Origin: Bacteroidaceae bacterium
Lineage (GTDB): Bacteria; Bacteroidota; Bacteroidia; Bacteroidales; Bacteroidaceae
Direction of reading: 5' to 3'
Length of the DNA: 64,000 nucleotides
NCBI GenBank assembly: GCA_036303125.1
Contig: JAXJBE010000278.1
Span: forward strand, 299-64,298
Made by a program: the position numbers and the translations under genes. The notes under the pieces are model-generated. The model was not told where the DNA came from, did no database searches, and saw only the letters and a list, made by a program, of their open reading frames with translations. This document shows, in pieces, positions 12,131 through 62,132 of the stretch (position 1 is its first letter; each line of letters starts with the position of its first letter).

Positions 12131-14119
12131 CTACTGCATCCTTTGCTTTATCATGTCTTGGATGTCATCGTCCTCCTTGTAATTGGCCTTGAGCGATTCG
12201 AGAGTCTGCTTAGCCTCTATGGCGCGCTCCTCTGCCTTGTAGATGTCGCTGAGGAGGATGAAGGCACGAGCAAGCCAGTATGGGCGGCCTATACCCTTGT
12301 CAATGGCAGCAAGTATCTGCTGTTCTGCTATCTGATACTGTCCGCTATCATAAAGAGCCTGGGCTGCGAGGACTGGCGCCATGGCCTCAGCTGTCTCTAT
12401 GGAGTCCTGCGCAGCAGCAATGGAGTCTTGTATGGCTATATTAGCCGCCATATTGGCTATTTCATCACTGGCCTTCTGCGCATACTCATTGCCTGGATAT
12501 TTGATGACGATAGACTGGAAGATGGCATTGGCTTCATCAGTGCGGCCTGAAAGGACATTGGCTCTGCCCTGTTCGAAGAGTGCCTTGGCTGAAAGGGAGG
12601 AGTTTGCATACTCCTCTTTCATTCTGTTGATAATGTCTATTTTGCTATCATAGTTGCCGCGGAGTCCTTCTATATAGGCCTGCTGGAGCATTGAATAGTC
12701 GCCAAGGGCATGGTCTGTGGCTTTGGCAAGGGTATATGACTCATTGGCCTTGTCATAGTCGCGCATGTTGAGGTAGCTGTCACCAAGTCGGTTACATGCA
12801 TCGGCTTTCATGGCGGAGTTGGCGTCAGAGGCCTGTGTTATCTTTTCGAATTGGCTGATGGCAGCATTGTAGCGTTGCTGCTTGAAAAGCGCATAGCCAA
12901 GACTGTAGATGGCGTATGTACTGTTCCGGAGTCGACCCAAGGATGTCTGTGTGCCAAGATTGATGGCCGTGTTGAGGTCGTTAGCGGCCAAGGCATAGTT
13001 GCCCAGGCGATAGTTGCAGTCACCCTTGATGTAGTACGACTCGGCATAAGCCTCCGCGTTCCTATTGCCGAGAGCCACCGCATCGCCTGCATAAGAGAGA
13101 GCTTTATTGACTTGATTGGCGTTGAGGGCTTCGAAGGCAAGATTGTATAGCACATTCTGCTTGTCTGTCTGAGCGTCTGCATTAGGTGTCTGCACCTTGT
13201 TGATGGCGCTGAGAGCCTTGGTGTAGTCCTTCTTCGACATGTATGCCTCGGTCAAGCACTGGGAGACAGGTGCAGCATAAGGAGATGAGGGAAACTCAGA
13301 CAGAAACTGTTCCATGACAGTGACGGTCTGCGGCGCAGACTTCTCATGGAGAGTCAGCGCGTAGTTGTAAAGCGCCATCTCACGGACTGCTGGATCAGCA
13401 GCCATCTGGGCGGCACGGGCGAAGGCATCCTGCGCATTGGCTTTGCGAATAAGGCGAAGGTAGGCTATGCCAGCATGAAGCCATGCGTTCTGAGCCATAG
13501 CATCACTGTGCTCGGCGGCAGACTGACTGAGGTTGTCTACAGCCTTCTCGAAGGCACCCTGACGATAGTAGCACATGCCCAGCTTATATAGGGCGACACG
13601 TGTTTTCTCTCCAGCTTCAAGATAATTGACGGCGCGCGCCTCTTCTCCACGGTCGTAGAGACGTTCACCTGCCAATCGGTAAAGGACATCATTGTAGCTG
13701 CTCATCTCGCCAGTAAGGCGCGTGAGGGGATAAGGCAGAGGAGTGGGAACCAAATCGTCTTTCTCCTGTTGGAAGAAAAGGTCAACAGCTTCATCATAAC
13801 GATGAGACTTTATGAGGAGATTGCGCCTGAGGATGTTGACGACACCAGCATACTGAGATTTCTTATTCTCCCCTATCCATGCGCTCATGAGATTGGCTGT
13901 GAATGGACGGTCCAGAACATAGTCGCAGATGAGCATGAGTCCCTCAGCATCGGCTATGCGGCTATCCTCTCCACGGACATTATCTACAAAATGTTCAAAC
14001 TGCTGTCTTGCTCCGATATAATGGCCGTCTGCCAATGCCTTGATGGCATCTTGCTGTGCGTGGGCAGAAAAAGACATTGTGGCCAACAGGCATGTCAGTA
14101 TACTACGGTAATGTTTCAT
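12131..14119 (-). CDS. Secreted tetratricopeptide-repeat (TPR) protein
   Basis: Signal peptide (LLATMSFSAHAQ) and repeated A-x-x-x-Y/F ... G-x-Y-x-x-A helix pairs along its 662 aa. Confidence 0.7.
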   Translation of the reverse strand: MKHYRSILTCLLATMSFSAHAQQDAIKALADGHYIGARQQFEHFVDNVRGEDSRIADAEGLMLICDYVLDRPFTANLMSAWIGENKKSQYAGVVNILRRNLLIKSHRYDEAVDLFFQQEKDDLVPTPLPYPLTRLTGEMSSYNDVLYRLAGERLYDRGEEARAVNYLEAGEKTRVALYKLGMCYYRQGAFEKAVDNLSQSAAEHSDAMAQNAWLHAGIAYLRLIRKANAQDAFARAAQMAADPAVREMALYNYALTLHEKSAPQTVTVMEQFLSEFPSSPYAAPVSQCLTEAYMSKKDYTKALSAINKVQTPNADAQTDKQNVLYNLAFEALNANQVNKALSYAGDAVALGNRNAEAYAESYYIKGDCNYRLGNYALAANDLNTAINLGTQTSLGRLRNSTYAIYSLGYALFKQQRYNAAISQFEKITQASDANSAMKADACNRLGDSYLNMRDYDKANESYTLAKATDHALGDYSMLQQAYIEGLRGNYDSKIDIINRMKEEYANSSLSAKALFEQGRANVLSGRTDEANAIFQSIVIKYPGNEYAQKASDEIANMAANIAIQDSIAAAQDSIETAEAMAPVLAAQALYDSGQYQIAEQQILAAIDKGIGRPYWLARAFILLSDIYKAEERAIEAKQTLESLKANYKEDDDIQDMIKQRMQ

Positions 14120-14192
14120 TTTATATTATTGTATAATCAAATTTCAGCATGAGAGGCGATGAACACCCATCACACATGACAATATCCGAATG

Positions 14193-14200
14193 CAAAGATA
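14193..14200 (-). promoter_or_regulatory. -7 promoter box TATCTTTG for the TPR gene
   Basis: Reverse complement of CAAAGATA, about 75 nt upstream of the 14119 start. Confidence 0.45.
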
Positions 14201-14380
14201 CGGTTATTTAGGTAACGGGACAAAGAATTTAAGTATTTTTCAGTGAATAAGTGCACGTGAAAACGGCAATGCCCAGATAACAAGCATGCGGGATGCTTGC
14301 TTTATGCACAAACATCCCGCATGCAGATAAGAGGTCTTGGCAAAATCAAGACCACGTCAACAGGTCCACCTTTTCATGCC

Positions 14381-14520
14381 AGCGAACTCACATCCCTTGG
14401 CCAGCAAACCCACATCTCTCAGCCAGCAAGCTCAACACCCCTCGGGAGCAAGCTCACAACCCCTCGGGAGCAGGCTCACAAGTAGCTGGGAGCAAGCTCA
14501 CGAGGGGTTGTGAGCAGGCG
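14381..14520. repeat. Degenerate 22-bp tandem repeat, about 6.4 units
   Basis: Units start exactly every 22 bp at 14381, 14403, 14425, 14447, 14469, 14491 and 14513, with consensus AGCAAGCTCACAACCCCTCGGG. Units 4 and 6 form a perfect 14-bp inverted repeat (14453-14466 / 14501-14514), followed by T5. Confidence 0.85.
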
Positions 14521-14599
14521 TCTTTTTCAGAATAGCCAACCCACTGATTTTTATTAGATTCTGCCTTAAGCAGGATAAACCTTATTTTGACGACAACAT

Positions 14600-15433
14600 C
14601 TATGGCAGGTCAACAGTCCAGTAGCTGTGGGTCGGGGTTATCCTCCCGAACTTACCCCACTTCGGGTGATTCTTGAATTTCTGCAACCCTGCGGCAGGAA
14701 CGTTGAGACGTGTGACATGTATCTCGCTGAAGACATCTTCGCCAAGTTCAAAGGGTTCAGTCACCCGAAGGTTGACTTCAACGAGACTGGTGTTGACAAA
14801 GGCCCTGTCATCAATATATTCCATGGTGGTCGGGAGATTCATCTTCTGGACGATGGTGCCGTCAAATGCTCGTTTGCCTATACGCTTGAGCCCGTGCGGC
14901 ATGTTGACTTTCTCCAATCCCCAGCAACCAGCAAAGGCTCCGTCCGGTATCTCCGTGATGCCCTTGGGCAGGACAATGGAGGTGAGCTTTTTGCATGTGC
15001 GGAAAGCATAGGGAGCAATAACGGTGGTGTGGTCAGGCAAACGGAACTCTCCTTTCTTGCCTGGAGGACAAATGAGCAACATCTTCTGGTCCTTTGTGTA
15101 AAGAGCACCATCCTTGGAGGAGAAATGCGTATTGTCTGGATGAACTTCTATAGAGGTCAGTTTGAAGCAATGGTCAAAGACATTAGTCCCTATTGAGTCT
15201 ACGCTGGCAGGGATAATGATTGCTGTGAGCTCTGTACTCTTATAGTAGGCAGAGTCGCTGATGACGGTCTGCCCGTCGGGAATGGTTTCTACCGCAGCGG
15301 TTTGTGAAACTGCAGCACGACTGGACATCTCAGTCTGCAACTGCGTTTTGCCATTGGAACTGACCTCTTGCGCCTGTATGAACAGCGGGGCGACAGACGC
15401 GGCTGCTACAAATAGGGTTATCAATTTTCTCAT
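14600..15433 (-). CDS. BspA-type leucine-rich-repeat (LRR_5) surface protein
   Basis: Signal peptide plus repeated I-P-x-S/G-V/I-x-x-I-G-x-x-A-F-x-x-C-x-x-L units (IPASVDSIGTNVFDHCFKLTSI, LPKGITEIPDGAFAGCWGLEKV). Confidence 0.75.
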   Translation of the reverse strand: MRKLITLFVAAASVAPLFIQAQEVSSNGKTQLQTEMSSRAAVSQTAAVETIPDGQTVISDSAYYKSTELTAIIIPASVDSIGTNVFDHCFKLTSIEVHPDNTHFSSKDGALYTKDQKMLLICPPGKKGEFRLPDHTTVIAPYAFRTCKKLTSIVLPKGITEIPDGAFAGCWGLEKVNMPHGLKRIGKRAFDGTIVQKMNLPTTMEYIDDRAFVNTSLVEVNLRVTEPFELGEDVFSEIHVTRLNVPAAGLQKFKNHPKWGKFGRITPTHSYWTVDLP

Positions 15434-47571: not shown

Positions 47572-48852
47572 CTAATTTAATGATTCTAAACCCAAAAATC
47601 CTTCCCACCTCGCCACTAACGGATGGCCATACTGTTCAAAACCTCCTTCCACATGAACAGTAGCGCATCGCTTTGCCCACAAACAACGATGAACAGAACT
47701 CTGTGAATGTTGATTCACCTCAAACTCCAGCACATAGTCGCCCTTGCTCATGTAACGAGGTAGCTTTATTCGGCGGTGCAGCGAGAAATCGCCAATCGGA
47801 ACATCTTCTGCCACTCCCTTATACGCTCCTTCAGAAAAAGTGGCCATGGGAACCTCACTCATATTGAAGAACTTCAACTGAACATTTGCCTTGAATGGTT
47901 CTGTGGTTGTCCCTTCAAAAAGAATATCAAGGTATTCTTGATTACTCTCGATTGTACTCTCCGTATAAGGAGTTCCATTTATTTCAAGCTTCTTTATCGT
48001 AACATAAGAGGCGAGCTGGTCTATATGATCTGTTATCAGTCCATGCTCAAGATGAGAATTATTCTGCAGATAATAGTTTACAGCATCCTCTGTGCCACCA
48101 TCATAGACCAATGTGCCATTTTGCAATACAACTCCCCTCGTACACAGATTCTTCACAGCTGCCATGTTATGACTAACAAACAAGACGGTTCGGCCTTCCG
48201 AATGCGCCACGTCATTCATCTTTCCTATAGCCTTCTTCTGGAACTCCGCATCACCTACTGTCAGCACCTCATCAACGACAAGTATCTCGGGTTCAAGAAA
48301 GGCTGCGACAGCAAATCCAAGACGGACTGTCATGCCAGAGGAATAACGCTTGACAGGAGTGTCGAGATAACGTTCCACTCCTGCAAAGTCAACAATCTCG
48401 TCCAACTTACGTGTTATCTCCGACTTTGTCATTCCCATTATGGATCCATTCATGTAAATGTTCTCACGACCCGTCATCTCTGGATGGAAACCAGTGCCGA
48501 CCTCAAGGAGTGATGCAATACGGCCGTTGTAGCGGATGGTGCCAGTAGAGGGTGAGGTGATGCGCGACAGGAGCTTCAGGAGGGTAGACTTGCCAGCTCC
48601 ATTCTTGCCGATGATACCAACGACATCGCCCTGCTCCACCTTAAACGATATGTCCTTAAGAGCCCACACATAGTCTGAGTGTCCCTTATGCGCGCGGTCG
48701 TTTGCCTCACCTATCTTAAGATAAGGATCCTCTTTGCGAAGAACATTAACAGCCCACCATCTGTTGAGGTCATGGGACAGCGTGCCTGTGCCAACGCGAC
48801 CAAGTCGGTACTGCTTGCCAACTGAATCAAATTCGATTGCTATTTGTTTCAT
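47572..48852 (-). CDS. wzt: Polysaccharide ABC-transporter ATP-binding protein with a C-terminal extension (Wzt type)
   Basis: Walker A (GKNGAGKST), signature (YSSGMTVRLGF) and Walker B (ILVVDE), then a ~170-aa beta-rich C-terminal domain. Confidence 0.85.
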   Translation of the reverse strand: MKQIAIEFDSVGKQYRLGRVGTGTLSHDLNRWWAVNVLRKEDPYLKIGEANDRAHKGHSDYVWALKDISFKVEQGDVVGIIGKNGAGKSTLLKLLSRITSPSTGTIRYNGRIASLLEVGTGFHPEMTGRENIYMNGSIMGMTKSEITRKLDEIVDFAGVERYLDTPVKRYSSGMTVRLGFAVAAFLEPEILVVDEVLTVGDAEFQKKAIGKMNDVAHSEGRTVLFVSHNMAAVKNLCTRGVVLQNGTLVYDGGTEDAVNYYLQNNSHLEHGLITDHIDQLASYVTIKKLEINGTPYTESTIESNQEYLDILFEGTTTEPFKANVQLKFFNMSEVPMATFSEGAYKGVAEDVPIGDFSLHRRIKLPRYMSKGDYVLEFEVNQHSQSSVHRCLWAKRCATVHVEGGFEQYGHPLVARWEGFLGLESLN

Positions 48853-50604
48853 AAACGATAACGTTTATTGCTGTGAAATTTTGCCTTTTTTGTGAAGATA
48901 CCTTCGCAGGCTCTTGAAGGTATCTTCGCAGGCCAATGAAAGTATCTTCATGAGCCGATGAAGGTACCTTCACATTTTTCATACGTTTTATACCATTATT
49001 TTTTTCTATCTTACAAGTATGGCTCTTAGTTTTCTTGTCATAATTGATTCCAACAAGAATGATGTTGCCTGAGTACTCTGCCAACTTGGAATAATAAGAT
49101 TGGTTCTTAATCTGCGCGATAGCTTTTTCCGCAGAATGTCCACACTTTAATTCCATCAATATAGCAGGTACATCCACATTCTTACGGGGTATAAAGACGA
49201 GATCTGCATAACCTTTGCCTGTTGCATATTCTCGATGGATGATATAATCATCCTGCGCACTGATATATGCCATGGAAAGTACACATGCCAAGGAATTCTC
49301 GTCATTATAAGAGAGAATGCTGACATTCTCATCATGTACTTGCTCTATGCCTTGCGCCACGGCCATCTCGTTGCAGTTAAGTGTGGCATCCAACAAGTCA
49401 TAAGAGTCTGATATCGCCTTAGCCAATCTTGTCCAATTTGTTGATTCAACAGCATTGGTTAGTTCGTCAGCCACTTCTTTATTGGGTATAAAACACCTAC
49501 TCGTATCTTCGTCAAATGCGAGATAGCCAAGGTGAATAAGAACAGTCAATACATCATCCCTGCTTGATATAGCATGTATGTCATTCAGAAATTTTGTCGT
49601 ATTTACACGGACTGACTCTCCCGACAGCATCTTGATGACACTGTCTTTTAATCCATCGAAGTTCATCTGAATATAGGTCTTGACTGAATCATAAGCACCC
49701 GTATTGGACCAGTAACTCTTGCATTTATGACGCTGTATAGCCCTGCTAACTGAGTATGGGTTATAAATGGACTTCACTTTCCCTATTTTATATCCATCGT
49801 ACCATTGTTTCAAACCATCCTTATCAGCGTCATGCTTTGCCGCCAAAAACTCAACCTCTTCTCTTGTAAAGCCGAAGAATGGAGCCAAATCACCAGGATC
49901 CACCATTGAATACTCCTCGAAATTGTTGAGAGCGGACTGAGTATTGTATTTCTTGATAGGAAGGATGCCTGTCATATATACTCCAGCAAATACATCTTTC
50001 GAGTTTTGTGTCTTGAATAGACGACGAAGCAACATCACGTATTCATCCATAACCGTCATATCAGGATAATCTTCAGATATGACATCGCCACACTCACGAC
50101 ATATAGCGTCCCACTCATCTATAATAAGGATGAACTTTTCCCCCGTAGCACAATGAACAGCAAAAAGGACATCCATAAGATCAGCAGAGTCAGCCACGCG
50201 CACGTCCGGATATGCCAAAAGGATCTCTTCACCAATTGCTGTTTGCATGGCACTCACCAACTACCCTTTCACACTCGGATTGGAAGTGAATGTTGTCACG
50301 TCAAGCTTAATAACAGGATACTTGTTCAAATGTTCCTCAAAAGAAGGATCTCTTGCAATCTTAAAAGGAACGAAAAGAGAACGACTGTCACATGACTTAT
50401 CATAATAAGCATACAACATGTCAGCAGCCATAGTCTTCCCGAAACGACGGCAGCGAGTGACACAACTGAGACTACGCTCTGTGCACAAAGTTTTATTGAT
50501 GTATGCTATCAACTCCGTCTTATCAACATAATCGCCGTTGACAGCCTGTCGAAAGCCCGCATTACCTTTATTGATAAATTACCTTTATTGATAAATGTAC
50601 CCAT
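48827..50604 (-). pseudogene. Decayed AAA-ATPase-like / PD-(D/E)XK gene
   Basis: The ATG at 50604 is followed by an exact 17-bp tandem duplication (50562-50578 = 50579-50595), which shifts the frame. Removing one copy restores MGTFINKGNAGFRQAVNGDYVDKTELIAYINK...RRFGKTMAADML. An in-frame TAG at 50263-50261 then interrupts ...NPSVKG*LVSAMQTAIG.... Confidence 0.8.
48893..48980. repeat. 4 x 22-bp tandem repeat, each unit carrying a 12-14-bp palindrome
   Basis: Units start at 48893, 48915, 48937 and 48959, with cores TGAAGATACCTTC, TGAAGGTATCTTC, TGAAAGTATCTTCA and TGAAGGTACCTTCA; the last is a perfect 14-bp palindrome. The nearest unit lies 41 bp upstream of the wzt ATG. Confidence 0.9.
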
Positions 50605-50643
50605 GATATAATTTTAAGGCAGAAACAACAATTACAATAGGAA

Positions 50644-51483
50644 CTATACCGTATCCATGAAATTGCGCTCGGTGCGAGAAAAGACTATGACAGAGAAGCA
50701 GAGGGTGATAAGCATGAATACAACACTGTAAAGAAGGCCTCCCCAGTCAAGACTTCCACAGCCAAGGGTCGAATACTTGAAGGCCTCGAAGATGGGAGTG
50801 AGGGGATTAAGCGCTATGATGTCACGGTATTTCTCCGGAGCTGCAGAGAGCGGATAGATAACAGGTGTCGCGTACATGAAAAGCTGGATGCCAAACTGTA
50901 TGAGGAACTTCATATCACGATATTTGGTAGTCATTGACGAGATAATCAATCCCCAAGACATGCCATGCATGGCCAACATGAATATCAAAACAGGAAAGAG
51001 TAGCACGGAAGAACTGACATGGAGTGTTCCTGCTGGTAATGTGAATACATAATAGATGTAGATGGCTATAAAGATACAAAGCTGAATAAGCATCTTGAGC
51101 AAGGCACTTGTCACTCCAGACAAAGGCACTATGAGTCGAGGGAAATATACCTTGCCGAAGACATTAGCGTTAAGACCAAAAACGTCATTTGACACTGTGA
51201 AGCACTCGTTGAAATAGCCCCACAAAACAATACCAGCCATATAAAAAAGCGGTTGAGGCGCCCCATCGGTAGATATGCCAGCCAATCCACCAAAGACAAA
51301 CATATACATGATGGTGGTAAATAGAGGCTGAATGACATACCAAAGAGGACCAAGAATAGTCTGCTTGTACTGAGTGACAATATCGCGGCGGATGTACATT
51401 GTGTAAAGATCGCGATAGCGCCATATTCCTTTAAGGTCAATATCAGTCCACCTACGATTAGGTCTTATTTCTGTTGTAAACAT
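50644..51483 (-). CDS. wzm: ABC-2-type polysaccharide export permease
   Basis: 279 aa with 6 TM helices and the N-terminal YRDLYTMYIRRDIVTQYKQTILGPLWYVIQPL motif of Wzm/TagG/KpsM. Confidence 0.85.
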   Translation of the reverse strand: MFTTEIRPNRRWTDIDLKGIWRYRDLYTMYIRRDIVTQYKQTILGPLWYVIQPLFTTIMYMFVFGGLAGISTDGAPQPLFYMAGIVLWGYFNECFTVSNDVFGLNANVFGKVYFPRLIVPLSGVTSALLKMLIQLCIFIAIYIYYVFTLPAGTLHVSSSVLLFPVLIFMLAMHGMSWGLIISSMTTKYRDMKFLIQFGIQLFMYATPVIYPLSAAPEKYRDIIALNPLTPIFEAFKYSTLGCGSLDWGGLLYSVVFMLITLCFSVIVFSRTERNFMDTV

Positions 51484-51498
51484 AAGATAGGAATATTG

Positions 51499-51695
51499 AA
51501 ACTGGTAATAGCTGGAATAGTTTGGATAGCAGGGATAGCCATTATAGCCGGGATAGTATTGATAGCTGAAATAACTATTATAGCTGGAATAGCAGAGATA
51601 GAAAAAATAGAGGCAATAGAAAGAATAGCAGAAATAGGCTATGCAGGATGTGCGCTATTGATGCTATTGTGCTATTATTGCTATTAAGCTATTTC
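51499..51695. repeat. 9-bp-periodic ATAG/CTAT palindromic array R1
   Basis: ATAG (one ATAA) recurs every exactly 9 bp at 15 consecutive registers, 51508-51634. The core CTATGCAGGATGT follows, then 5 CTAT units of opposite polarity (51655-51689). Confidence 0.9.
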
Positions 51696-52252
51696 TTTGG
51701 ATTATTATTTTGTCTAGCCGCAAGGCGCACTTGAGTCATTTTCTCTCTTAGACCTCCATTGGCGATGAAATCCTGCTCAAGCTTGGCTATGTATTTGTTC
51801 ATGGCAGTGTCAACCTGATGGATGAGGGTAATGGCGGTATTGGCCATCTCCTCATCTGACCACTTGGCATAATAGCGGTTATAATCTGTAGTATCGTTGT
51901 GAATGAAACAATAGTTGACGAGGGAGTTATAGCGTGGATGGGATGTGTCCCATAAAGAAAGATTGTGCACTCTAAGATAATCGTGATAGTCAGCAAGAAG
52001 TTCCGCCAGACTTGCACGGGCTACATTGTTGAGTTTGATCTCTGTCTCTGTACTGGTCATTGCTGCCTCTGTTCCCTCAATGATATTCTGCTTGCCCGAA
52101 CGTGCCGCCTGAATCATCTGGTCGACTGTGCGGTCACCCTTGGAGAGATAGGTGGTGGCAAAGTAGTAGGTGAGATCATAAAGGCAGACGGTCTTCTTGT
52201 AGAAGATGAGGTTTTGATATCCTTTGCGGCGGAGGAATGTAGCAGGAGGCAT
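51689..52252 (-). CDS. Four-helix-bundle protein (23S rRNA intervening-sequence protein / Avd family) with a suffix domain
   Basis: FYKKTVCLYDLTYYF...DRTVDQMIQAARSGKQNIIEG...ARASLAELLADYHDYL. The start is set at MPPATF (52252), because the upstream part of the ORF is repeat R2. Confidence 0.7.
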   Translation of the reverse strand: MPPATFLRRKGYQNLIFYKKTVCLYDLTYYFATTYLSKGDRTVDQMIQAARSGKQNIIEGTEAAMTSTETEIKLNNVARASLAELLADYHDYLRVHNLSLWDTSHPRYNSLVNYCFIHNDTTDYNRYYAKWSDEEMANTAITLIHQVDTAMNKYIAKLEQDFIANGGLREKMTQVRLAARQNNNPKK

Positions 52253-52261
52253 GGGGATTGT

Positions 52262-52430
52262 TTTTTTAATAGTTTGAATAGCTAAAATAGATGGTATAGC
52301 TACAATTAACAAGATGCTGAGATAGATAAGATAGCTTTGATAGCTGGAATAGACTATGCAGGGTGTTGGCTATTAAAGCTATAATGGCTATCACCGCTAT
52401 TCAAACCATCACCGCTATTCAAGCTATGAC
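52262..52430. repeat. 9-bp-periodic ATAG/CTAT palindromic array R2
   Basis: ATAG registers run 52269-52349 (one slip of 1 nt). The core CTATGCAGGGTGT starts at 52354, followed by CTAT every 9 bp at 52370-52424. Same orientation and architecture as R1. Confidence 0.9.
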
Positions 52431-52432
52431 TA

Positions 52433-53557
52433 CTACTCATTCAGCATGCTTTCTATAGGAGCCATGAGGGCTTCGATGTCAAACTCATATCCTCGCATTT
52501 CACTCTTCATGCGATAGTCATCCATAAGGCTTGGCTTGTCAAGGAACTGTTTGATGCCATCATACAAACCATTCTCTGAATTAGGCACCATGAGAGCGCA
52601 CTCTCCATTCTTGAAGATTTCATTATTTTCAGGAGTTTTTGTAGCCACAATCGGCATTCCAAGTATGAGGGCTTTCACCGCTGCTGAACTGTATGAGCAA
52701 CATACATACAGTTGTCCATGCACAATATAACGGTAAGGATTGGGGTGAGAACCAAATAGTTTAATCTTATTCTCCAACCCCCTGTCTTTAATGAAATGTT
52801 CAAGAATACCCATCTCCAGACCGTCGCCAAAGATCCAGAGGCCAACATCATAACCCTCATTGTTCAATCGGTGAACCACTTTCAATAAGCGACCGTATGC
52901 GTTGTCTGCCTCCAAGCGGCCTTGAGTAACCAGACGAACCGCCACCTTGTTGGGATCTTCCTTAGTGGCATTGAGAGACTTCAGTCTCACAGACAAAGAA
53001 TCTATAGGGGAATATATCATACGGACAGGAGTTGTCACTTCGGGAAACTGCTTTTTGAATGCCTCCTTGATGAGATTGGTGACGCATATCACACCATCAA
53101 AGGTATTATATGCCTTTATCTCCTCCTTGGGGTTGTTATACAGTTCTGCTGTCCAATGGTTCTTATTCAAATCAGTATGAACCCAAGCATATTTCTTCGC
53201 CTTCTTATTGGTAGAGTAGCTAAGCAACTTAGTCACAAATCCTTCGCCACACGCTATCTCCACATCTGCCCCTTTCGGCACATAAAGCTTATACACCCAT
53301 GACATAGGCAACTTGCGATAAATCCACTTAGATTTAGTGCTGTCTGCGTTGCCCTTGATGAGATACTTGTATTTCACATTATCTCTGATAGTTGACTCGA
53401 ACGAACCGCCCTTGTTTATTGAACAAACTGTGATGTCATACTTCGTCTTATCAATATATTCCACGATTGTTGACAGGGTTTTCGCAGCTTTCTCGTTACG
53501 CAATGATTCTATAAGAAAAAGAACCTTACGTTTAGGAACATTTCCTTCCATATTCAT
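52433..53557 (-). CDS. Glycosyltransferase family 4 (paralog with a degenerate N-terminal GGAEK motif)
   Basis: KVLFLIESLRNEKAAKTLSTIVEYIDKTKYDITVCSI ... KLPMSWVYKLYVPKGADVEIA aligns with the 45424-46557 product. Confidence 0.7.
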   Translation of the reverse strand: MNMEGNVPKRKVLFLIESLRNEKAAKTLSTIVEYIDKTKYDITVCSINKGGSFESTIRDNVKYKYLIKGNADSTKSKWIYRKLPMSWVYKLYVPKGADVEIACGEGFVTKLLSYSTNKKAKKYAWVHTDLNKNHWTAELYNNPKEEIKAYNTFDGVICVTNLIKEAFKKQFPEVTTPVRMIYSPIDSLSVRLKSLNATKEDPNKVAVRLVTQGRLEADNAYGRLLKVVHRLNNEGYDVGLWIFGDGLEMGILEHFIKDRGLENKIKLFGSHPNPYRYIVHGQLYVCCSYSSAAVKALILGMPIVATKTPENNEIFKNGECALMVPNSENGLYDGIKQFLDKPSLMDDYRMKSEMRGYEFDIEALMAPIESMLNE

Positions 53558-53596
53558 ATTGTGAGTTTTCTATTGGACTTATTATTAAGTGGCATT

Positions 53597-53604
53597 CAAA
53601 ATTA
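53597..53604 (-). promoter_or_regulatory. -7 box TAATTTTG (internal promoter candidate)
   Basis: Reverse complement of CAAAATTA, 40 nt upstream of the 53557 start. Confidence 0.3.
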
Positions 53605-53645
53605 TCTTATATTTACATAGCAGGTGTTTTCTAATATCTTAGTCT

Positions 53646-56102
53646 TCATTCATCATCTCTTGCGTATCCACCATACGTGCCGTAACGATGGTATCCATAA
53701 TATGACAATGCATCGGCTGTGCCATTGAGGATGAGCGACATCTTTGGCAACTTATCCTCTTCATAGTACGCCTGTATATCTGGGAGAAGACTCTTATCCA
53801 TGTGTTCCGCACGAATTACGAACAGGGTGGCATCTGAATATTTACCAATGATTGACGCGTCAGCTATAATCTCCGCAGGAGGGCAGTCGAGAATGATGTA
53901 AGCATACTCATCACGCAGTTCGTCCAACAGTTCCTTCAGACGATCGTCAAACAACAATTCCGTCGGATTAGGAGGAATTGTGCCCACAGGCACAACATCC
54001 AGATACTGGTGAGTGGCATTGCGAATGACCACATCGTCAAAACTGTCTGTCACACCAGACAAATAATCAGCTATACCAATCTTTGGTTTACCAACCATAG
54101 CAGAAAGAGAAGCCTTGCGGAGATCCAGGTCGATGGCAAGAACCTTCTGCTTTTTTATGGCAAAAGAAGTGATAAGATTAGTCACCACAAACGTCTTGCC
54201 TGAATTGGGCATAAATGACGTACTCATTATCACACGTCCACGTCCCCCCTTAGCTGTCATAAACTCAATGTTGGTACGTATTACTCGGAAGGCCTCATTG
54301 ACAACATTGCGTGAGTGGTCTTTCACCAAGATGTGCAAGGTCTTATCCTCCACAAAATCTTCAAGAGGAGAAAGCATATTGTGTATGTTGGTCCACATCT
54401 TTTTCCATGGTCCGAAAAGCTTCTCCGAGAACGTGCGGTGGTGACGGTAGAGCGGCACTTCTCCGATGAATGGTATAGTCAATTCTGCCAAATCCTTACG
54501 AGTGCGCACCTTATTGTTCATAGCTTCAAGCAGGAATATCAGAGCTGCGGGAACGGCAAGACCTGCAACAAAACCGATAATCCATACCATCTGAGGTATG
54601 GGGAATGTAGGGATATTAGAGCCTGTAGGAGAAGAAATCATGCGAGTGTTGTAAGCCGTGAAAGCTTGAGAGAGTTCATTTTCCTCTCTCTTCTGCAAAA
54701 GGTAGAGATACAGATTCTCTTTCACCTTCTGCTGACGTTCCACAGAAAGCAAATACTGAGACTGAGCAGGCGCAGATGCAATCTTCTGATTTGCAGCACC
54801 CCTCACAGACTGAGCTGCCCTCAACGACACATTCAGAGTAGCTATATAATTGTCAATGGAAGCAATCAGAGCACTGCGAAGCCCATCAAGCTGTTGGTCC
54901 TTGCGCTGCACTAATGGGTTCTGCTCTGATGTGACATTAAGCATGTTGTTGCGTGCAAGAAGCAGATTGTTATACTCTGAAATCTGCGAACCCAAGTTTG
55001 CGTTGTCAAATGTCTGGTTAGCAGGTATCAACGTATACTTGTTAGCTGAATTGGTCAGATAATTGCGCACATAACGAGCCATATACAACTGACTGTTAAG
55101 CTCTGTAGCTTGCTGTGTAGCACTACTTACCTGCTCTATATACATGCTTGAGACATCATTAGCACCAGAAGGTATCAGATTGGCAGACTTGTAAGATGAG
55201 ATATCCTCCTCCACACTGCCAAGCTCCTTTTCGATGACACTAAGACGCTCCTTTATAAACTCAGAAGCAGCAACAGTCTTGCGATTGCAGTCCACCATCC
55301 AACTGTCGTCATAGACAGCCAAGAGAGCGGAAATGACATCTTCTGCCCTTTGAGGACTTTCATCCATATATGTGATATTGATGATTGAAGACTGGTCGCC
55401 CATGGCACTGACGCTGAGATTGGACATGACCTTGGCTATGGCTATCTGCAATGGCTGGCGATCCACCCTCACCGAAAGCTCCATTTGCGCGTTATTGTCC
55501 ACCTTCTGCACGTCAACATTTCCGATAGGGGTCTTCGCCACCTTGCCCACCTTACCTTTCACAGTTCCAGAAACAGGCTCACCATTACGAGTGAAATCAG
55601 ACATCACGTATGTACCATCACCCTTCAGTTCAAACATGAAGTCCGCCGCCTCTTGGTCATTCAACTGCAATGGAAGAATCTTCACAGGAAGATTGCTTCC
55701 ATACACTATCTCTTCATGGAAGCGTCCCACTCCATAGCATGCAACATCCAACCTAAGATTCTTTACAGCCGTGGCAGCGAAATCCCGAGACTTGAGCGTG
55801 TACATCTCATCCGTCAAATCCACACCACTGCTGATGAAAGACATCTGACTCTGCACTTCCTTAGCATCATTCTTTATCTTTATTGACGCTGTACGAGTGT
55901 ATATAGGCGCAGTAGTCTTCAGATACAAATAGCTGCCAGCCAGTCCCAACGCTACGCATAATACAAACCAGTACCACCTTGAAGCAAATAGAGTGATAAA
56001 TTCCATCGCTTTAGCCATCGGGCTCACCTTTCGCTGCATCTGAGCAGTACCCGACAGTTGCGGAGCCACCGTTGCCGGTGATTGATTATTAAGAGGTAAC
56101 AT
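53646..56102 (-). CDS. wzc: Wzc/GumC-type polysaccharide co-polymerase fused to a BY tyrosine autokinase
   Basis: 818 aa: an N-terminal TM helix, a long coiled periplasmic region and a second TM helix. These are followed by Walker A (MPNSGKTFVVTNL) and a C-terminal Tyr cluster (SYYGYHRYGTYGGY). Confidence 0.85.
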   Translation of the reverse strand: MLPLNNQSPATVAPQLSGTAQMQRKVSPMAKAMEFITLFASRWYWFVLCVALGLAGSYLYLKTTAPIYTRTASIKIKNDAKEVQSQMSFISSGVDLTDEMYTLKSRDFAATAVKNLRLDVACYGVGRFHEEIVYGSNLPVKILPLQLNDQEAADFMFELKGDGTYVMSDFTRNGEPVSGTVKGKVGKVAKTPIGNVDVQKVDNNAQMELSVRVDRQPLQIAIAKVMSNLSVSAMGDQSSIINITYMDESPQRAEDVISALLAVYDDSWMVDCNRKTVAASEFIKERLSVIEKELGSVEEDISSYKSANLIPSGANDVSSMYIEQVSSATQQATELNSQLYMARYVRNYLTNSANKYTLIPANQTFDNANLGSQISEYNNLLLARNNMLNVTSEQNPLVQRKDQQLDGLRSALIASIDNYIATLNVSLRAAQSVRGAANQKIASAPAQSQYLLSVERQQKVKENLYLYLLQKREENELSQAFTAYNTRMISSPTGSNIPTFPIPQMVWIIGFVAGLAVPAALIFLLEAMNNKVRTRKDLAELTIPFIGEVPLYRHHRTFSEKLFGPWKKMWTNIHNMLSPLEDFVEDKTLHILVKDHSRNVVNEAFRVIRTNIEFMTAKGGRGRVIMSTSFMPNSGKTFVVTNLITSFAIKKQKVLAIDLDLRKASLSAMVGKPKIGIADYLSGVTDSFDDVVIRNATHQYLDVVPVGTIPPNPTELLFDDRLKELLDELRDEYAYIILDCPPAEIIADASIIGKYSDATLFVIRAEHMDKSLLPDIQAYYEEDKLPKMSLILNGTADALSYYGYHRYGTYGGYARDDE

Positions 56103-58617: not shown

Positions 58618-61600
58618 CTACTTCTTGATGGAGTTATTGAGGGCTGGTTTAAGCTCATCTGGAGAGTCTTTTGTGAACATGTTCACAGCACCAGCAACTT
58701 TAGTGAAGAGGTCAGACACATTATTTATATTTATAGTCCATGTTGGGGCGAACTTGTCTGACTGCATGTAAGTGAGTATGGACTCTCGCATCTGACGCGC
58801 CACAATGCGCTTATCAAGGTTGTTTGTGATGTCCATGGTTGTCATGACAAGTTTGCCCTTGCCCACGTTGGCTTCGAAAAGCATGCCAATCTTTCGAGAG
58901 ACAAACCAAGTGTCAATACTTTGCACAAGAGGCTGGAAGTCCGACGGAAAATCCGTGAACTGCATCACTTGGGCACGATTGACAAGTTCCCACCACTGAA
59001 GGTCTGAGTGATAGTCAGTAGGGAAAAGGTCGAAGATGGGATGCGCATTGTCAACAAGGATGCCTGTGGTATGGGGTGGGCGCATCTTAAACCAAGAGGT
59101 GTTCCAAAAGACAGGAGTGAACTGCTGCACCACTTCTTTGCCGTATGTCACCTTTCCTGCAGCACAGACGAGGACTTTTCCACCCTTGTTAAGAGTCTTG
59201 ATAGCCTTAGCATCAAGCGAGTCAGTCACATAAATGCCTTTAGGCATCCATGACTTCTTTTCATACTTGACATCGGAGTCCAGTTCGGCAGGATAAACCC
59301 AGATGTTCCAATGGTTGCGCACTCGAGTGCCCGGGATGGATACAGAGAGTGTATATCTGGAAGCCTTCTTCACGCCAGAGAGAGGAATGGATATTTTACC
59401 AACAGATATGTTGCCGCCAACAGGAAGATCACGAGCATCAAAGCTTCCTTCGGCTAAAGGGGCAGGCTGATTGAGGAGCATGAGTCCACCTTGAGTCTCA
59501 GGAGCTGGAGTGAAGTCCCAATGCACCTTGACATCCTTCATGTCAGCCTCGGAAAACTGATTCATCTCCACGTCGGCAATAAAGGTCTCGTCACTCGTAT
59601 AAGTGAACTTTGGCATCTTTGCAAGAGGAACCACAGGAGCGCAGAACTCCCGAAATTCCTCACCGGTCATATACCCCTTATCGTCAAAGAACACATCGGT
59701 AAGTCCGACTATAGCTGTGCCCTGCCCAGAGTAATCGTTGAGAGCCAGAAGCTGGAAACCCGCATAATCAGGTGTGCGCAGCGTGCGCTCTATCTCCGCC
59801 TTGTAGCATATAGCCTGCAATTTGCCCGAAGCCATCATAAAATCATGAGCACGAGACTCCATGCCGTTGTCCCGCAGAAGGTCTCGGAATATCTCAAAGT
59901 TCTTAGCTTTATTCACACCAGTATACTTGGGTATCTCGTCAAAGTTTGGGAAAGCACACCACTGGCCAGTCTCATGACTGACAAAAGGCATGGTGATGGG
60001 AGTGTTTGGCATGTCCTTCCCATTGTAAGTTGTTATGTTCTTCTCGAAATTGATGACAGACTCAGGCGCGCGCTTTGCCCATTCGTTCAAGCCACGAGCT
60101 CCAGCCTTGACTGCATACTCGCTGCCCGGTTGCCAAGCCCATCCGCCTCCCACGCTAAAGCCACAGTAGAGATGGCGAGGGTCATGCTGCTTCATCAGCT
60201 CCACATGGTCTGTAGACCATTTAACCCAGTTGCCAGCAGGCTCATTGCCAAAAGCAAAGAAAGTGAAGGAAGGATGGTTGCCATACTCATCCGCTATGGC
60301 TCGACTTTCGTCCATGAGATAAGTGTCAATAGGTTCGCCACGGCCAAGCTTGACGCCATGGTTAGGCCATGAGGGACCTTCCGGCTGGATATACATGCCT
60401 ACCATATCTGCTGCAAGGAAGGCCGCCTCTGGAGGGCAGTAGCTATGGAAGCGCACATGATTGAGTCCGTAAGCCTTGCAACGGTTGAAGACCCGAAGCC
60501 ATGAATCCACGTCCATGGGGGGATAGCCCGTGTTGGGGAAATCGCAGTTTTCGACAGTTCCACGCAACTGTATCTGACGGCCATTGACATAGAACATCTT
60601 ATCGCGAATCTCTATCTTGCGCATGCCAAAAACCGTCTCTTTGCGATAAGAACGACCATCAGCGACGGTCAGTTCCGCTTCAAGCTTATACAGTTGCGGA
60701 TGAAACTCATCCCATAAAAGCATGCCTTCGCCCATCTGGAGAGCTACATCGGCAGTAGCAACCATGCTGTCACTGAGGGTGAGGCGAACAGGTTCAGACG
60801 ATACCGTATGATGCTTGTCAGTATTAAAGGCAGTCGCCTTGAGAGTGAGGGTAGCCTTCTTGCCGGGGAAACAATCGAGCATCTCCACATGAACTGTAGC
60901 CTTACGATTGTCAACATCAGGATAGACAGCCACATAGTCTACCGCATTGAAAGGGCGCAGTTCTATCTTACCCACGATTCCGTTCCAGTCTCCTTGAGTC
61001 TGGTCTGTGATAGAGTGAGAGTCCTGACCTACATTGACCGTCTCCGGATCATTGTCGACACAGATGGCAATGGTATTCTTGCCAGGATTAAGCAGACCGT
61101 AGAGATAGAAGACATGAGGGACAGAGAGGGACTTCTGTATGCGGTCGACTTTCTCACCGTTGACCCACACTTGAGTGGTGATATGAGGACGCTCAAGGTA
61201 AAGAGCGTACATGGGCAGGTCAGGAGACTCGGGAAGATTTACGGTCTTCTTATACCAAGCCTTGCCTACATAATGCTTGTCTGGTGTAAGAAAGAACTGA
61301 AGCTTCATATCCTTGCCAGGAGCACGGTAACGCTTCATATATGGATTGAAGAAATAGCTGGAATCGTATAAGGAACCGACCCAACGGGTATCGACACTGA
61401 TATCATCTCCCTTGAGACGCTGAGGCATAGAGGCAGGAAGGAGTATGGTATCGTCAAAAGGAGTTGAAGCAGAATACCAAGCCTCTGCTTCACCTCTGCC
61501 ATCACGGTCTATCTGAAACTGCCACTGGCCTGAGAGGTCAATAGACTGAGCCGAGAGACGAAGGGAAGGGAATATAAAGAAAAAGAGGAAAAGAAGAGAA

Positions 61601-61629
61601 TAACAGTTAGATTTCATTGGATTAGTCAA
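58618..61629 (-). CDS. GH2-family glycoside hydrolase (large, 1003 aa)
   Basis: Signal peptide, DLSGQWQFQ sugar-binding-domain opening, and TIM-barrel region YGLNHVRFHSYCPPEAAFLAADMVGMYIQPE. Confidence 0.6.
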   Translation of the reverse strand: MTNPMKSNCYSLLFLFFFIFPSLRLSAQSIDLSGQWQFQIDRDGRGEAEAWYSASTPFDDTILLPASMPQRLKGDDISVDTRWVGSLYDSSYFFNPYMKRYRAPGKDMKLQFFLTPDKHYVGKAWYKKTVNLPESPDLPMYALYLERPHITTQVWVNGEKVDRIQKSLSVPHVFYLYGLLNPGKNTIAICVDNDPETVNVGQDSHSITDQTQGDWNGIVGKIELRPFNAVDYVAVYPDVDNRKATVHVEMLDCFPGKKATLTLKATAFNTDKHHTVSSEPVRLTLSDSMVATADVALQMGEGMLLWDEFHPQLYKLEAELTVADGRSYRKETVFGMRKIEIRDKMFYVNGRQIQLRGTVENCDFPNTGYPPMDVDSWLRVFNRCKAYGLNHVRFHSYCPPEAAFLAADMVGMYIQPEGPSWPNHGVKLGRGEPIDTYLMDESRAIADEYGNHPSFTFFAFGNEPAGNWVKWSTDHVELMKQHDPRHLYCGFSVGGGWAWQPGSEYAVKAGARGLNEWAKRAPESVINFEKNITTYNGKDMPNTPITMPFVSHETGQWCAFPNFDEIPKYTGVNKAKNFEIFRDLLRDNGMESRAHDFMMASGKLQAICYKAEIERTLRTPDYAGFQLLALNDYSGQGTAIVGLTDVFFDDKGYMTGEEFREFCAPVVPLAKMPKFTYTSDETFIADVEMNQFSEADMKDVKVHWDFTPAPETQGGLMLLNQPAPLAEGSFDARDLPVGGNISVGKISIPLSGVKKASRYTLSVSIPGTRVRNHWNIWVYPAELDSDVKYEKKSWMPKGIYVTDSLDAKAIKTLNKGGKVLVCAAGKVTYGKEVVQQFTPVFWNTSWFKMRPPHTTGILVDNAHPIFDLFPTDYHSDLQWWELVNRAQVMQFTDFPSDFQPLVQSIDTWFVSRKIGMLFEANVGKGKLVMTTMDITNNLDKRIVARQMRESILTYMQSDKFAPTWTININNVSDLFTKVAGAVNMFTKDSPDELKPALNNSIKK

Positions 61630-61649: not shown

Positions 61650-61720
61650 GCGATAATAGTGGTAATAGCTATGATAGCTATTCTGGCTATGATAGCTATT
61701 CAAGCCATCAAAAGCTCTAT
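61650..61720. repeat. Solo 9-bp-periodic ATAG/CTAT array R3
   Basis: ATAG at 61656, 61665 and 61674. GCTATGATAGCTATTC occurs twice at an 18-bp spacing (61668-61683, 61686-61701). The array lies 20-90 bp upstream of the GH2 start. Confidence 0.8.
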
Positions 61721-61780
61721 TTCCGAAAAAAGCGACAGACTCTATAAGAGAATGCCGCTTAGATTTGATTCGTGTAATGG

Positions 61781-61927
61781 AACGATTTCGTTAAGCCAAA
61801 TGAGCAGAGCCAAGCTCGCTTGAGCTATGCCATGGCGAGAAATCGCACTTTTAAGAACGATTTCGTTAAGCCAAAAGACCAGAGAAAGCTTGTTTACTCT
61901 GGCTTGGCGAGAAATCGCACTTTTAAG
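61781..61927. repeat. Two tandem copies (75 and 72 nt) of a hairpin repeat
   Basis: Both units start AACGATTTCGTTAAGCCAAA and end GGCGAGAAATCGCACTTTTAAG. The arms pair (CGATTTCG...GCCAA with TTGGC...GAAATCG), while the apical sequences differ but each folds on itself. Confidence 0.85.
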
Positions 61928-61958
61928 AATCGGCAGGAGCGATGACTCGCTGAGGCAA

Positions 61959-62132
61959 TTATTCGCCTGGAGCGATTGCGCCTGCTGGACATGCGTCAGC
62001 GCAAGTGCCGCAGTCTACACATGCGTCAGCATTAATTACATACTTGCCATCACCTTCGCTGATAGCTCCTGATGGACACTCGCCAGCGCAAGTTCCGCAC
62101 ATTACACAGTCGTCACTAATTACGTAAGCCAT
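61959..62132 (-). CDS. Clostridial-type 2x[4Fe-4S] ferredoxin (57 aa)
   Basis: Below the ORF-track size cutoff. The reverse strand encodes MAYVISDDCVMCGTCAGECPSGAISEGDGKYVINADACVDCGTCADACPAGAIAPGE, which contains two CxxCxxCxxxCP motifs. Confidence 0.9.
   Translation of the reverse strand: MAYVISDDCVMCGTCAGECPSGAISEGDGKYVINADACVDCGTCADACPAGAIAPGE

Follow-up and report, generated by a model that had tools for sequence, protein, structure and literature searches.

Four-helix-bundle genes in Bacteroidales sit within hypervariable periodic palindromic arrays

The capsule-operon locus

This analysis concerns a small gene for a four-helix-bundle (4HB) protein and the two short-period palindromic arrays that enclose it in a 64,000-nucleotide stretch of DNA from a Bacteroidaceae bacterium (GenBank assembly GCA_036303125.1, contig JAXJBE010000278.1), the whole of which is referred to here as the window. 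The gene (51689-52252, minus strand, 187 aa) is of the "suffix" type, with a TIGR04258 C-terminal domain on a TIGR02436/PF05635 bundle, and stands between two host genes: upstream, a GT4-type glycosyltransferase gene (52433-53557, minus strand; PF00534, PF13692), and downstream, a wzm-like ABC-2 permease gene (50644-51483, minus strand; PF01061). A Wzc-like gene lies further upstream at 53646-56102 (minus strand), and the setting is a capsule operon. The R2 array is the entire 180-bp spacer between the GT4 and 4HB genes (52253..52432, minus strand), while R1 comprises the 205-bp spacer between the 4HB gene and wzm plus the 4HB stop codon (51484..51695, minus strand). Coordinates and registers bear out the first-pass annotation of this DNA, which had described two palindromic ATAG/CTAT arrays bracketing a 4HB gene between GT4 and wzm. 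Across genomes, the association of the 4HB gene superfamily with periodic palindromic arrays is real, strong and recurrent: in Bacteroidales, 4HB genes of the PF05635 superfamily sit within hypervariable arrays of this kind, and such arrays also occur without the gene.

Read on the plus strand, R1 opens with 15 consecutive 9-bp registers (51508-51634), of which 14 read ATAG and one, at 51571, reads ATAA; all 15 had earlier been taken as ATAG. They are followed by the core CTATGCAGGATGT at 51639-51651 and by five CTAT units at 51655, 51664, 51672, 51681 and 51689, the last of which shares bases with the TAG stop codon of the 4HB gene. In the sense of the mRNA, R1 thus begins with a 5′ arm of five AATAGC units (51655-51695, the first overlapping the stop codon), passes through the core and ends in a 3′ arm of 15 CTAT registers (51508-51637). 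Between the last full ATAG register (51508) and the wzm ATG the distance is 24 nt, and a further ATAG is only 4 nt from that ATG; the former figure of about 15 nt was an approximation. In R2, ATAG occurs at 52269, 52278, 52287 and 52296, then gives way to a degenerate stretch with a 1-bp register slip and restarts at 52322, 52331, 52340 and 52349; the core CTATGCAGGGTGT (plus strand) occupies 52354-52366. The far arm has the seven exact 9-bp registers that had been reported (52370-52424), although one of them is CCAT and only six are CTAT. Its mRNA-sense order is a 5′ arm of AATAGC-type units (52367-52430), the core, and a 3′ arm of GCTAT-type units (52262-52353), separated from the 4HB ATG by an A/C-rich leader. 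The periodicity originally called strict therefore holds for the ATAG arm of R1, but not for its CTAT arm, where the spacing is 9, 8, 9 and 8, nor for the slipped ATAG arm of R2.

A third array, R3 (61650-61715, no strand assigned), was absent from the first-pass annotation. It repeats the ATAGC/GCTAT core of R1 and R2, is not accompanied by a small ORF, and lies between a ferredoxin gene (61959-62132, minus strand) and a GH2-like gene (58618-61629, minus strand); in 10 related strains no 4HB gene was found at this solo site. The window contains 19 copies of ATAG-N5-ATAG-N5-ATAG where shuffled sequence predicts 0.01, and all 19 are confined to R1, R2 or R3. A scan of 50400-53700 found no intrinsic terminator (a GC-rich stem with a U tract) at R1 or R2, and the Bacteroidetes -7 promoter motif TAnnTTTG is absent from the sense strand between GT4 and wzm. 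Nor are the arrays translated parts of neighbouring genes, a possibility raised earlier as one that would undermine the whole description: in the window they occupy the spacers from the stop codon of one conserved ORF to the start codon of the next, and the plus-strand frame that holds their TAG is closed.

The encoded protein is a four-helix bundle of the suffix subfamily. It matches TIGR04258, the four-helix-bundle suffix domain, with 70.4 bits (cutoff 40) and TIGR02436 with 28.1 bits (cutoff 24); PF05635, at 24.8, stays under its gathering score of 33.8. An AlphaFold2 model built with 30 homologues has a pLDDT of 88.6, and its Foldseek matches are Xcc0516 (2gsc, target TM 0.78-0.88), BT_0352 (2rld) and the Avd chains of the ribonucleoprotein of a diversity-generating retroelement (DGR; 8ub7, target-normalised TM about 0.7-0.8). 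The initial assignment to the four-helix bundles of the 23S rRNA intervening sequence (IVS) and Avd type is thus confirmed, with PF05635 itself below threshold. The family is very large, with at least 8000 hits, and the motif GDRTVDQMxQAARSGKQNIxEG is invariant among homologues; PADLOC has no match for the 4HB-suffix family. Judged by the names that related proteins bear, the source organism is probably a Bacteroidales of the Prevotella group (Bacteroidaceae in GTDB). A phage origin was considered and rejected, no relative being present among 2.9 million IMG/VR contigs. Clusters of both 4HB subfamilies are mostly known only from contigs shorter than 2-5 kb (P0364: 113 of 137 index blocks below 2 kb), a bias consistent with flanking arrays that break short-read assemblies.

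Variation between strains

The identical 187-aa protein is encoded in 138 index blocks of assemblies, many of them gut-metagenome assemblies with the same locus, and the GT4 gene is the same neighbour of the 4HB gene in all strains examined. Among 27 loci with the identical protein, R2 measures 162, 180, 252 or 270 bp, all differences being multiples of 9, and R1 measures 196, 205, 214, 223 or 232 bp, with a single 203-bp allele as the only departure from whole units in either array. Distinct alleles number 8 for R2 and 10 for R1. The arrays are by far the most variable portion of the locus and change by gain and loss of 9-bp units, the two arms of one array varying independently.

Other parts of the window vary or repeat in their own ways. 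The AAA-ATPase_like/PDDEXK_9 gene between wzm and wzt (48827-50512) is broken in the window into two ORFs (477 and 83 aa). Other strains have an intact gene of 532 aa, and in some (L001, L009) a sulfatase gene stands in its place. A 22-bp unit, TGAAGGTATCTTCGCAGGCCAA, is repeated 3.6 times at 48893-48971, between this gene and wzt. Between the ferredoxin gene and R3, a 72-bp unit is present twice (61780-61929); this repeat is probably polymorphic too, given that the spacer between the ferredoxin and GH2 genes measures 342 or 417 bp among strains, about 75 bp apart. The intergenic region 14119-14600 contains a further 22-bp tandem repeat (GCCAGCAAGCTCACAACCCCTC-like, about six copies, 14378-14516) that closes with an inverted copy (GCTCACAACCCCTCG ... 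CGAGGGGTTGTGAGC) and represents another palindromic repeat type in the same genome.

Gene and arrays across genomes

The generality of the pairing was assessed from both directions. From the side of the gene, 80 metagenomic loci encoding relatives 47-60% identical to the window protein were searched with an array detector that is independent of unit sequence. Within 300 bp of the gene, arrays of period 9 reach a density of 1.43 per kb, compared with 0.043 per kb elsewhere; period 10 is enriched near the gene as well, and periods 7, 8, 11 and 12 are not comparably so. Congruent with this, lag identity peaks at 9, 18 and 27 on either side of the 4HB-suffix gene. Counted by intergenic gap, an array of period 9 or 10 is present in 71 of 124 gaps adjoining the gene (57%) versus 19 of 154 other gaps on the same contigs (12%), a 4.7-fold enrichment per gap (odds ratio 9.5, p = 1e-15). 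Beyond the adjacent gap there is no gradient with distance, which disposes of a model in which the gene seeds arrays in cis with a decay along the chromosome; the arrays therefore belong to the boundary of the cassette. In the 69 loci readable on both sides, arrays stand on both sides in 21, on one side in 39 and on neither in 9, which amounts to a gene with at least one array in 60. These counts fit independent sides, and a split-target model, under which arrays would always be found on both, was rejected. Arrays are roughly as frequent upstream of the gene as downstream. When the loci are dereplicated at 75% nucleotide identity, at least one flanking array is present in 34 of the 38 lineages. 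The neighbouring genes are usually co-directional, as is the upstream neighbour in 52 of the 69 loci.

From the side of the array, one genome per species (185,579 genomes) was scanned for five CTAT-N5 units in 9-bp register. At least 120 loci were recovered, many in Bacteroidales, and the matches listed include Thermoanaerobaculia, Planctomycetota, Verrucomicrobiota, Ignavibacteria, Saprospiraceae, Patescibacteria and cyanobacteria. Many are ordinary perfect tandem repeats. Among the matches listed, most CTAT-type 9-bp arrays stand alone: only 3 of the 145 ORFs adjoining them encode 4HB proteins, and arrays exclusive to the surroundings of 4HB genes are excluded by the same count of 3 among the at least 120 loci listed. 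The co-occurrence that the first-pass annotation had suggested looking for is thus plain when approached from the gene (57% versus 12% of gaps) and sparse when approached from this one array type. The scan did lead to suffix-type 4HB genes with arrays on both sides in a Bacteroidales genome (L065) and in Candidatus Doudnabacteria (L050), and to a canonical PF05635 gene flanked on both sides by 9-bp CTTGACTNC arrays in Saprospiraceae (L102).

Arrays can extend in frame into the ends or loops of ORFs, though this is not the rule. In the Doudnabacteria locus (L050:3320-4380), a single 4HB-suffix gene has three ATAGGGATN-type palindromic arrays around and within it, and the internal one is translated in frame as an insertion of 44 residues, which falls between positions 125 and 130 of the profile; N- or C-terminal tails of this kind are found in L194, L158 and L134. 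A separate observation from the scan concerns Thermoanaerobaculia and Phycisphaerae (L029, L030, L036-L038, L105), where intergenic [ATAGGACNN]n-centre-[NNGTCCTAT]m arrays have arms that are complementary even at their variable positions and form long and nearly perfect hairpins; there is no 4HB gene within 350 bp of them.

Unit sequence, orientation and context

Around 4HB-suffix genes it is the period that is conserved, and the unit sequence differs between lineages. Its cores include CTATAG, GATAGA, TCTAGA, ACTAGT, CCTAGGA, GGCTTAG, ATTAGACCA, TCAGAATAA, CGAAGGC and others; a definition of the arrays by ATAG fails on this diversity, TAG or CTA being present in only about half. Some arrays have inverted halves, as R1 and R2 do, while others are unidirectional or built of palindromic cores. 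Within a locus, the upstream and downstream arrays have the unit type in common, and in 20 of the 25 loci that possess both they are direct repeats of each other (p = 0.002). R1 and R2 follow this rule, the direct comparison giving -122 kcal/mol and the inverted one -86.8. Flanking direct repeats are the geometry expected for excision and integration by recombination.

Solo arrays carry the signature of the cassette with which they share a contig. They have the core 6-mers of the cassette arrays in 14 of 30 cases, compared with 2.2% for pairs drawn from different loci, and the identity of the R3 core with that of R1 and R2 is a further instance. In L198 and in L160/L162/L169, solo arrays of the contig's unit type lie beside housekeeping genes (pgk, an HU-HIG gene, and upstream of deoC). 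Conversely, genes about 80-83% identical occur in unrelated contexts with one and the same unit type: CCTAGGA in L188 and L205, AATCAGAAT in L158, L191 and L194. One contig (L131) holds two array-flanked 4HB copies within 5 kb. Where the upstream array is absent, reading of the sequences by eye often reveals a TAnnTTTG motif upstream.

In eight loci the cassette lies between deoC and a convergent polyprenyl synthase gene, and a sister lineage whose deoC is 91% identical has an empty site there, a 99-bp deoC-polyprenyl synthase spacer with a single hairpin. The hairpin is bounded by A and T runs (AAAAAGCCTCACTAAACC...GGTTTAGTGAGGCTTT), and one of its arms matches the array unit AAGCCTCACTAAGCC of the filled sites. 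It may be either the scar of a lost cassette or an ancestral hairpin.

Canonical PF05635 cassettes

The pairing of gene and array is not confined to the suffix subfamily. A look-up in assemblies of homologues of a canonical 4HB gene from L134 (mutual identity 74-90%) showed them in at least five unrelated contexts in Bacteroidaceae: two FKBP genes enclose the cassette in one, a DUF6261 gene precedes it in another, and in a third it is divergent from an HU-HIG gene; the remaining two are a DUF3575 operon and L134. In each the layout is [GGGAGTAAAAAT]n-ORF-[TCTTTAACTCC]n, with an upstream arm that ends in the ATG and a downstream arm that begins just past the stop codon; the arms are mutually inverted and have a 12-bp period (lag-12 identity 0.395). 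Cassettes with 12-bp arms extend the pairing to the wider superfamily with another period, the arrays having a period of 9-10 bp around suffix members and 12 bp around canonical ones. In L253, L259 and L263, palindromes without an ORF adjoin canonical cassettes and retain their two arms together with the junction sequences. One canonical locus combines two layouts, arm-ORF-arm′ and [palindrome]-ORF-[palindrome], and the latter is that of the window cassette. Upstream of their canonical genes, L253, L254, L263 and related loci have a 12-bp unit of the form GGAG-N6-ATG, in which a Shine-Dalgarno-like motif and a start codon recur in frame, and gene callers predict micro-ORFs of 38-50 aa inside these arrays.

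The arrays as proposed cassette boundaries

The preferred reading, to which we give a probability of roughly 0.45, takes R1 and R2 for the boundary repeats of a 4HB insertion cassette that moves or recombines, the arrays being its ends or its tracts of homology. "Cassette", the term chosen by the first-pass annotation, is a fair one in light of the gene-array pairing in 60 of 69 loci, the several contexts with the same unit type and the empty deoC site. In this scheme the arrays would act chiefly at the level of DNA. Slippage and recombination within and between arrays would alter the number of units, and could also delete the ORF to leave a solo palindrome, or shift the ORF from one array site to another. 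Insertion beside or inside an operon may be tolerated because the cassette would be read through with the host genes, and the 4HB protein may bind the arrays, or the array transcripts, of its own element.

Several observations weigh against this reading. Lineages differ in how the arms are oriented to each other, and the array stands on just one side in 39 of the 69 loci and on neither in 9. Look-ups with wzm and GT4 found no strain of the window's species without the cassette; it is present in every strain recovered, with no excision or insertion polymorphism within the species, and the orthologous site without a cassette that had been sought is thus found at deoC but not at the window locus. 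No transposase, recombinase or target-site duplication was identified: neither a target-site duplication nor a cognate transposase is recognisable at the filled and empty deoC sites or in the cassette. The loci of the survey, mostly from rumen and gut Bacteroidales, were picked by similarity to the query and are not independent samples. Finally, a conserved period with a changing unit could instead reflect a structural or protein-binding constraint, or common descent with concerted evolution.

Pairing in the transcript

The same architecture has an RNA-level reading, suggested initially by the setting in which this protein family was first found. PF05635 genes are known within rRNA intervening sequences and in cas operons, and by analogy with the former, the arrays in the polycistronic transcript would pair, each locally or one with the other across the gene, and RNase III cleavage would free the 4HB mRNA and separate the GT4 and wzm messages. 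The mostly co-directional neighbours suit such a model. So do canonical 4HB genes, which lie exactly between inverted arms, the upstream one taking in the ATG and the downstream one following the stop, with a predicted enclosing duplex of about -48 kcal/mol; by way of these arms, the IVS analogy appears apt for the wider 4HB family. In the window, the minimum-free-energy fold of a 1031-nt transcript contains 68 pairs between R2 and R1, and the outer arms can form a duplex of about 49 bp with single mismatches only (-59.3 kcal/mol). Pairing across the gene, as first proposed, is thus possible in silico, but it is no better than expected from the cores: column-wise shuffles that preserve them give -58.1 +/- 4.3 kcal/mol (z = -0.28). 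The pairing is therefore generic to the core, with no sign of selected register-specific complementarity.

Other folding results point the same way. Single arrays fold with z of about -2.7 relative to shuffles, a modest figure. In 67 of 97 arrays the antisense strand gives a more stable fold than the sense strand (p = 1e-5), and the same holds for R1 (sense -37.5, antisense -53.0), R2 (sense -43.3, antisense -53.9) and R3. Selection for G-U-tolerant RNA pairing would yield the opposite; in canonical cassettes the antisense is more stable than the sense or equal to it. These results weigh against a sense-RNA stem as a selected feature. A stem of this kind is still conceivable, because a periodic zipper pairs in any register and needs no register-specific matches, and gain or loss of units would leave its pairing intact. 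In-frame arrays inside ORFs fit an excised stem poorly, as does the direct-repeat orientation of suffix-type arrays. Rfam 15, for its part, gave no family match, either in the window, with hits up to E <= 1 considered, or in 17 further loci judged by the gathering scores. The proposed RNase III stem is not supported for the suffix subfamily on these grounds, and we regard the model as a whole as unlikely.

Other accounts of the arrays

A repeat-protein partnership, of the type of repetitive extragenic palindromes (REPs) and their RAYT proteins or of iterons and operators, is more doubtful still. Here the 4HB protein would bind the periodic units as DNA or RNA, the arrays being densest at its own gene through autoregulation or action in cis, and solo arrays would be further binding sites. 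The account draws on a unit core that is lineage- or genome-specific while the period is conserved, on solo arrays that share the cassette core on the same contig, on polar residues that are invariant across the family, and on a fold that is that of Avd, a nucleic-acid binder in the DGR ribonucleoprotein. Binding of the arrays by 4HB proteins is, however, putative, and the near-equal frequency of arrays upstream and downstream would be unusual for an operator. 4HB genes are moreover multicopy, unlike the single-copy RAYTs, and co-variation of unit core and protein may be simple common descent.

Equally doubtful is the view that the arrays are neutral or generic repeats of intergenic DNA, for instance minisatellites prone to slippage or terminator hairpins that have expanded; as such they would be common in these genomes and would simply build up wherever DNA was recently inserted. 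Arrays in 12% of ordinary intergenic gaps, a highly polymorphic copy number, the terminator-like hairpin of the empty deoC site with its likeness to the array unit, and the spread of CTAT-type arrays through many phyla, mostly without a 4HB gene, are all in keeping with it. Set against these are an enrichment limited to the two gaps that touch the gene, an association that holds in two 4HB subfamilies with different periods and reaches Doudnabacteria and Saprospiraceae genomes, and the lack of an intrinsic-terminator signature at R1 and R2. A CRISPR array, with repeats of 24-48 bp and unique spacers of similar length, is ruled out by the 9-bp period and the 4-5-nt core.

Relation to known systems

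Several known systems resemble the window cassette in part. The 23S rRNA IVS with PF05635 proteins, of the Leptospira and Coxiella type, belongs to the same superfamily, and the likeness extends to a small ORF between pairable flanks, inserted in a transcribed host unit that is not destroyed by it; the canonical Bacteroidaceae cassettes add inverted arms that abut the ORF. The window cassette differs in that it lies between GT4 and wzm in a capsule operon and not in rRNA, which Rfam does not find here. Its flanks are arrays of short units (9-12 bp across the two subfamilies) with strain-variable length and not a unique stem, the flanks of the suffix subfamily are mostly direct repeats, and RNase III processing is putative.

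Rickettsia palindromic elements (RPEs), with a unit length of about 100-150 bp, are inserted in frame in genes, and recall the tolerance of in-frame palindromic repeats in the Doudnabacteria insert and the protein tails of L194, L158 and L134; they are not periodic arrays, however, and are not linked to one gene family. Avd of the DGRs has the four-helix-bundle fold in common with the window protein, but no reverse transcriptase is found among called genes within +/-6 kb in 10 strains, no template/variable repeat pair lies nearby, and the repeats here are 9-bp arrays. With bacterial variable-number tandem repeats (VNTRs, or minisatellites), R1 and R2 share the defining property, whole-unit copy-number polymorphism between strains; they depart from them in that only a core of 4-7 nt per unit is conserved, the two halves of an array face in opposite directions, and a tie to a single gene superfamily exists.

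Dispersed intergenic palindromes of genome-specific sequence that flank one gene, with gene-less copies elsewhere, resemble REPs (and their mosaic elements, BIMEs) with their RAYTs, as well as miniature inverted-repeat transposable elements (MITEs) with their autonomous partners. Gene-less copies that retain both ends, the mark of a MITE-type relation, are present in the form of the ORF-less canonical palindromes, and the R3 core matches that of R1 and R2. REPs are defined as 20-40-bp palindromes with a GTAG or CGTC tag and a Y1/HUH transposase (PMC3733652). Here the units measure 9-12 bp and form tandem arrays in place of a tagged palindrome, the flanked gene is 4HB and no HUH/Y1 or other recognisable transposase accompanies it, and, in further distinction from REPs and MITEs, the gene occurs in multiple copies and a target-site duplication was not seen. 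Full-text searches of the literature on PF05635 genes return their occurrence in rRNA insertions and inside cas operons, and no description of periodic arrays. The earlier statement that the 9-bp-periodic repeat lacks a prior description stands: none was found in Rfam or in full-text searches on the family and repeat terms. Within the searched literature the architecture is undescribed; it relates to IVSs, to REP/MITE-like repeats and to VNTRs, and is a member of none.

Significance

It is possible, though by no means probable, that PF05635 genes and periodic arrays together constitute an unrecognised class of prokaryotic mobile element, or a repeat-protein partnership, without a recognisable transposase. 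The 23S rRNA IVS would then be a special case, the 4HB protein the element's nucleic-acid-binding factor, and the gene-less arrays, in about a tenth of intergenic gaps, its non-autonomous derivatives. Few uncharacterised small genes are as common in Bacteroidota and several other phyla as those for 4HB or "23S rRNA IVS" proteins, and the link to arrays provides a testable handle on what these proteins do outside DGRs. Lineage-specific arrays that also occur without the gene lead to a hypothesis that would connect the odd placements of the family, in rRNA, in cas operons and in a capsule operon. In gut and rumen Bacteroidales, finally, these arrays vary between strains and probably break assemblies.

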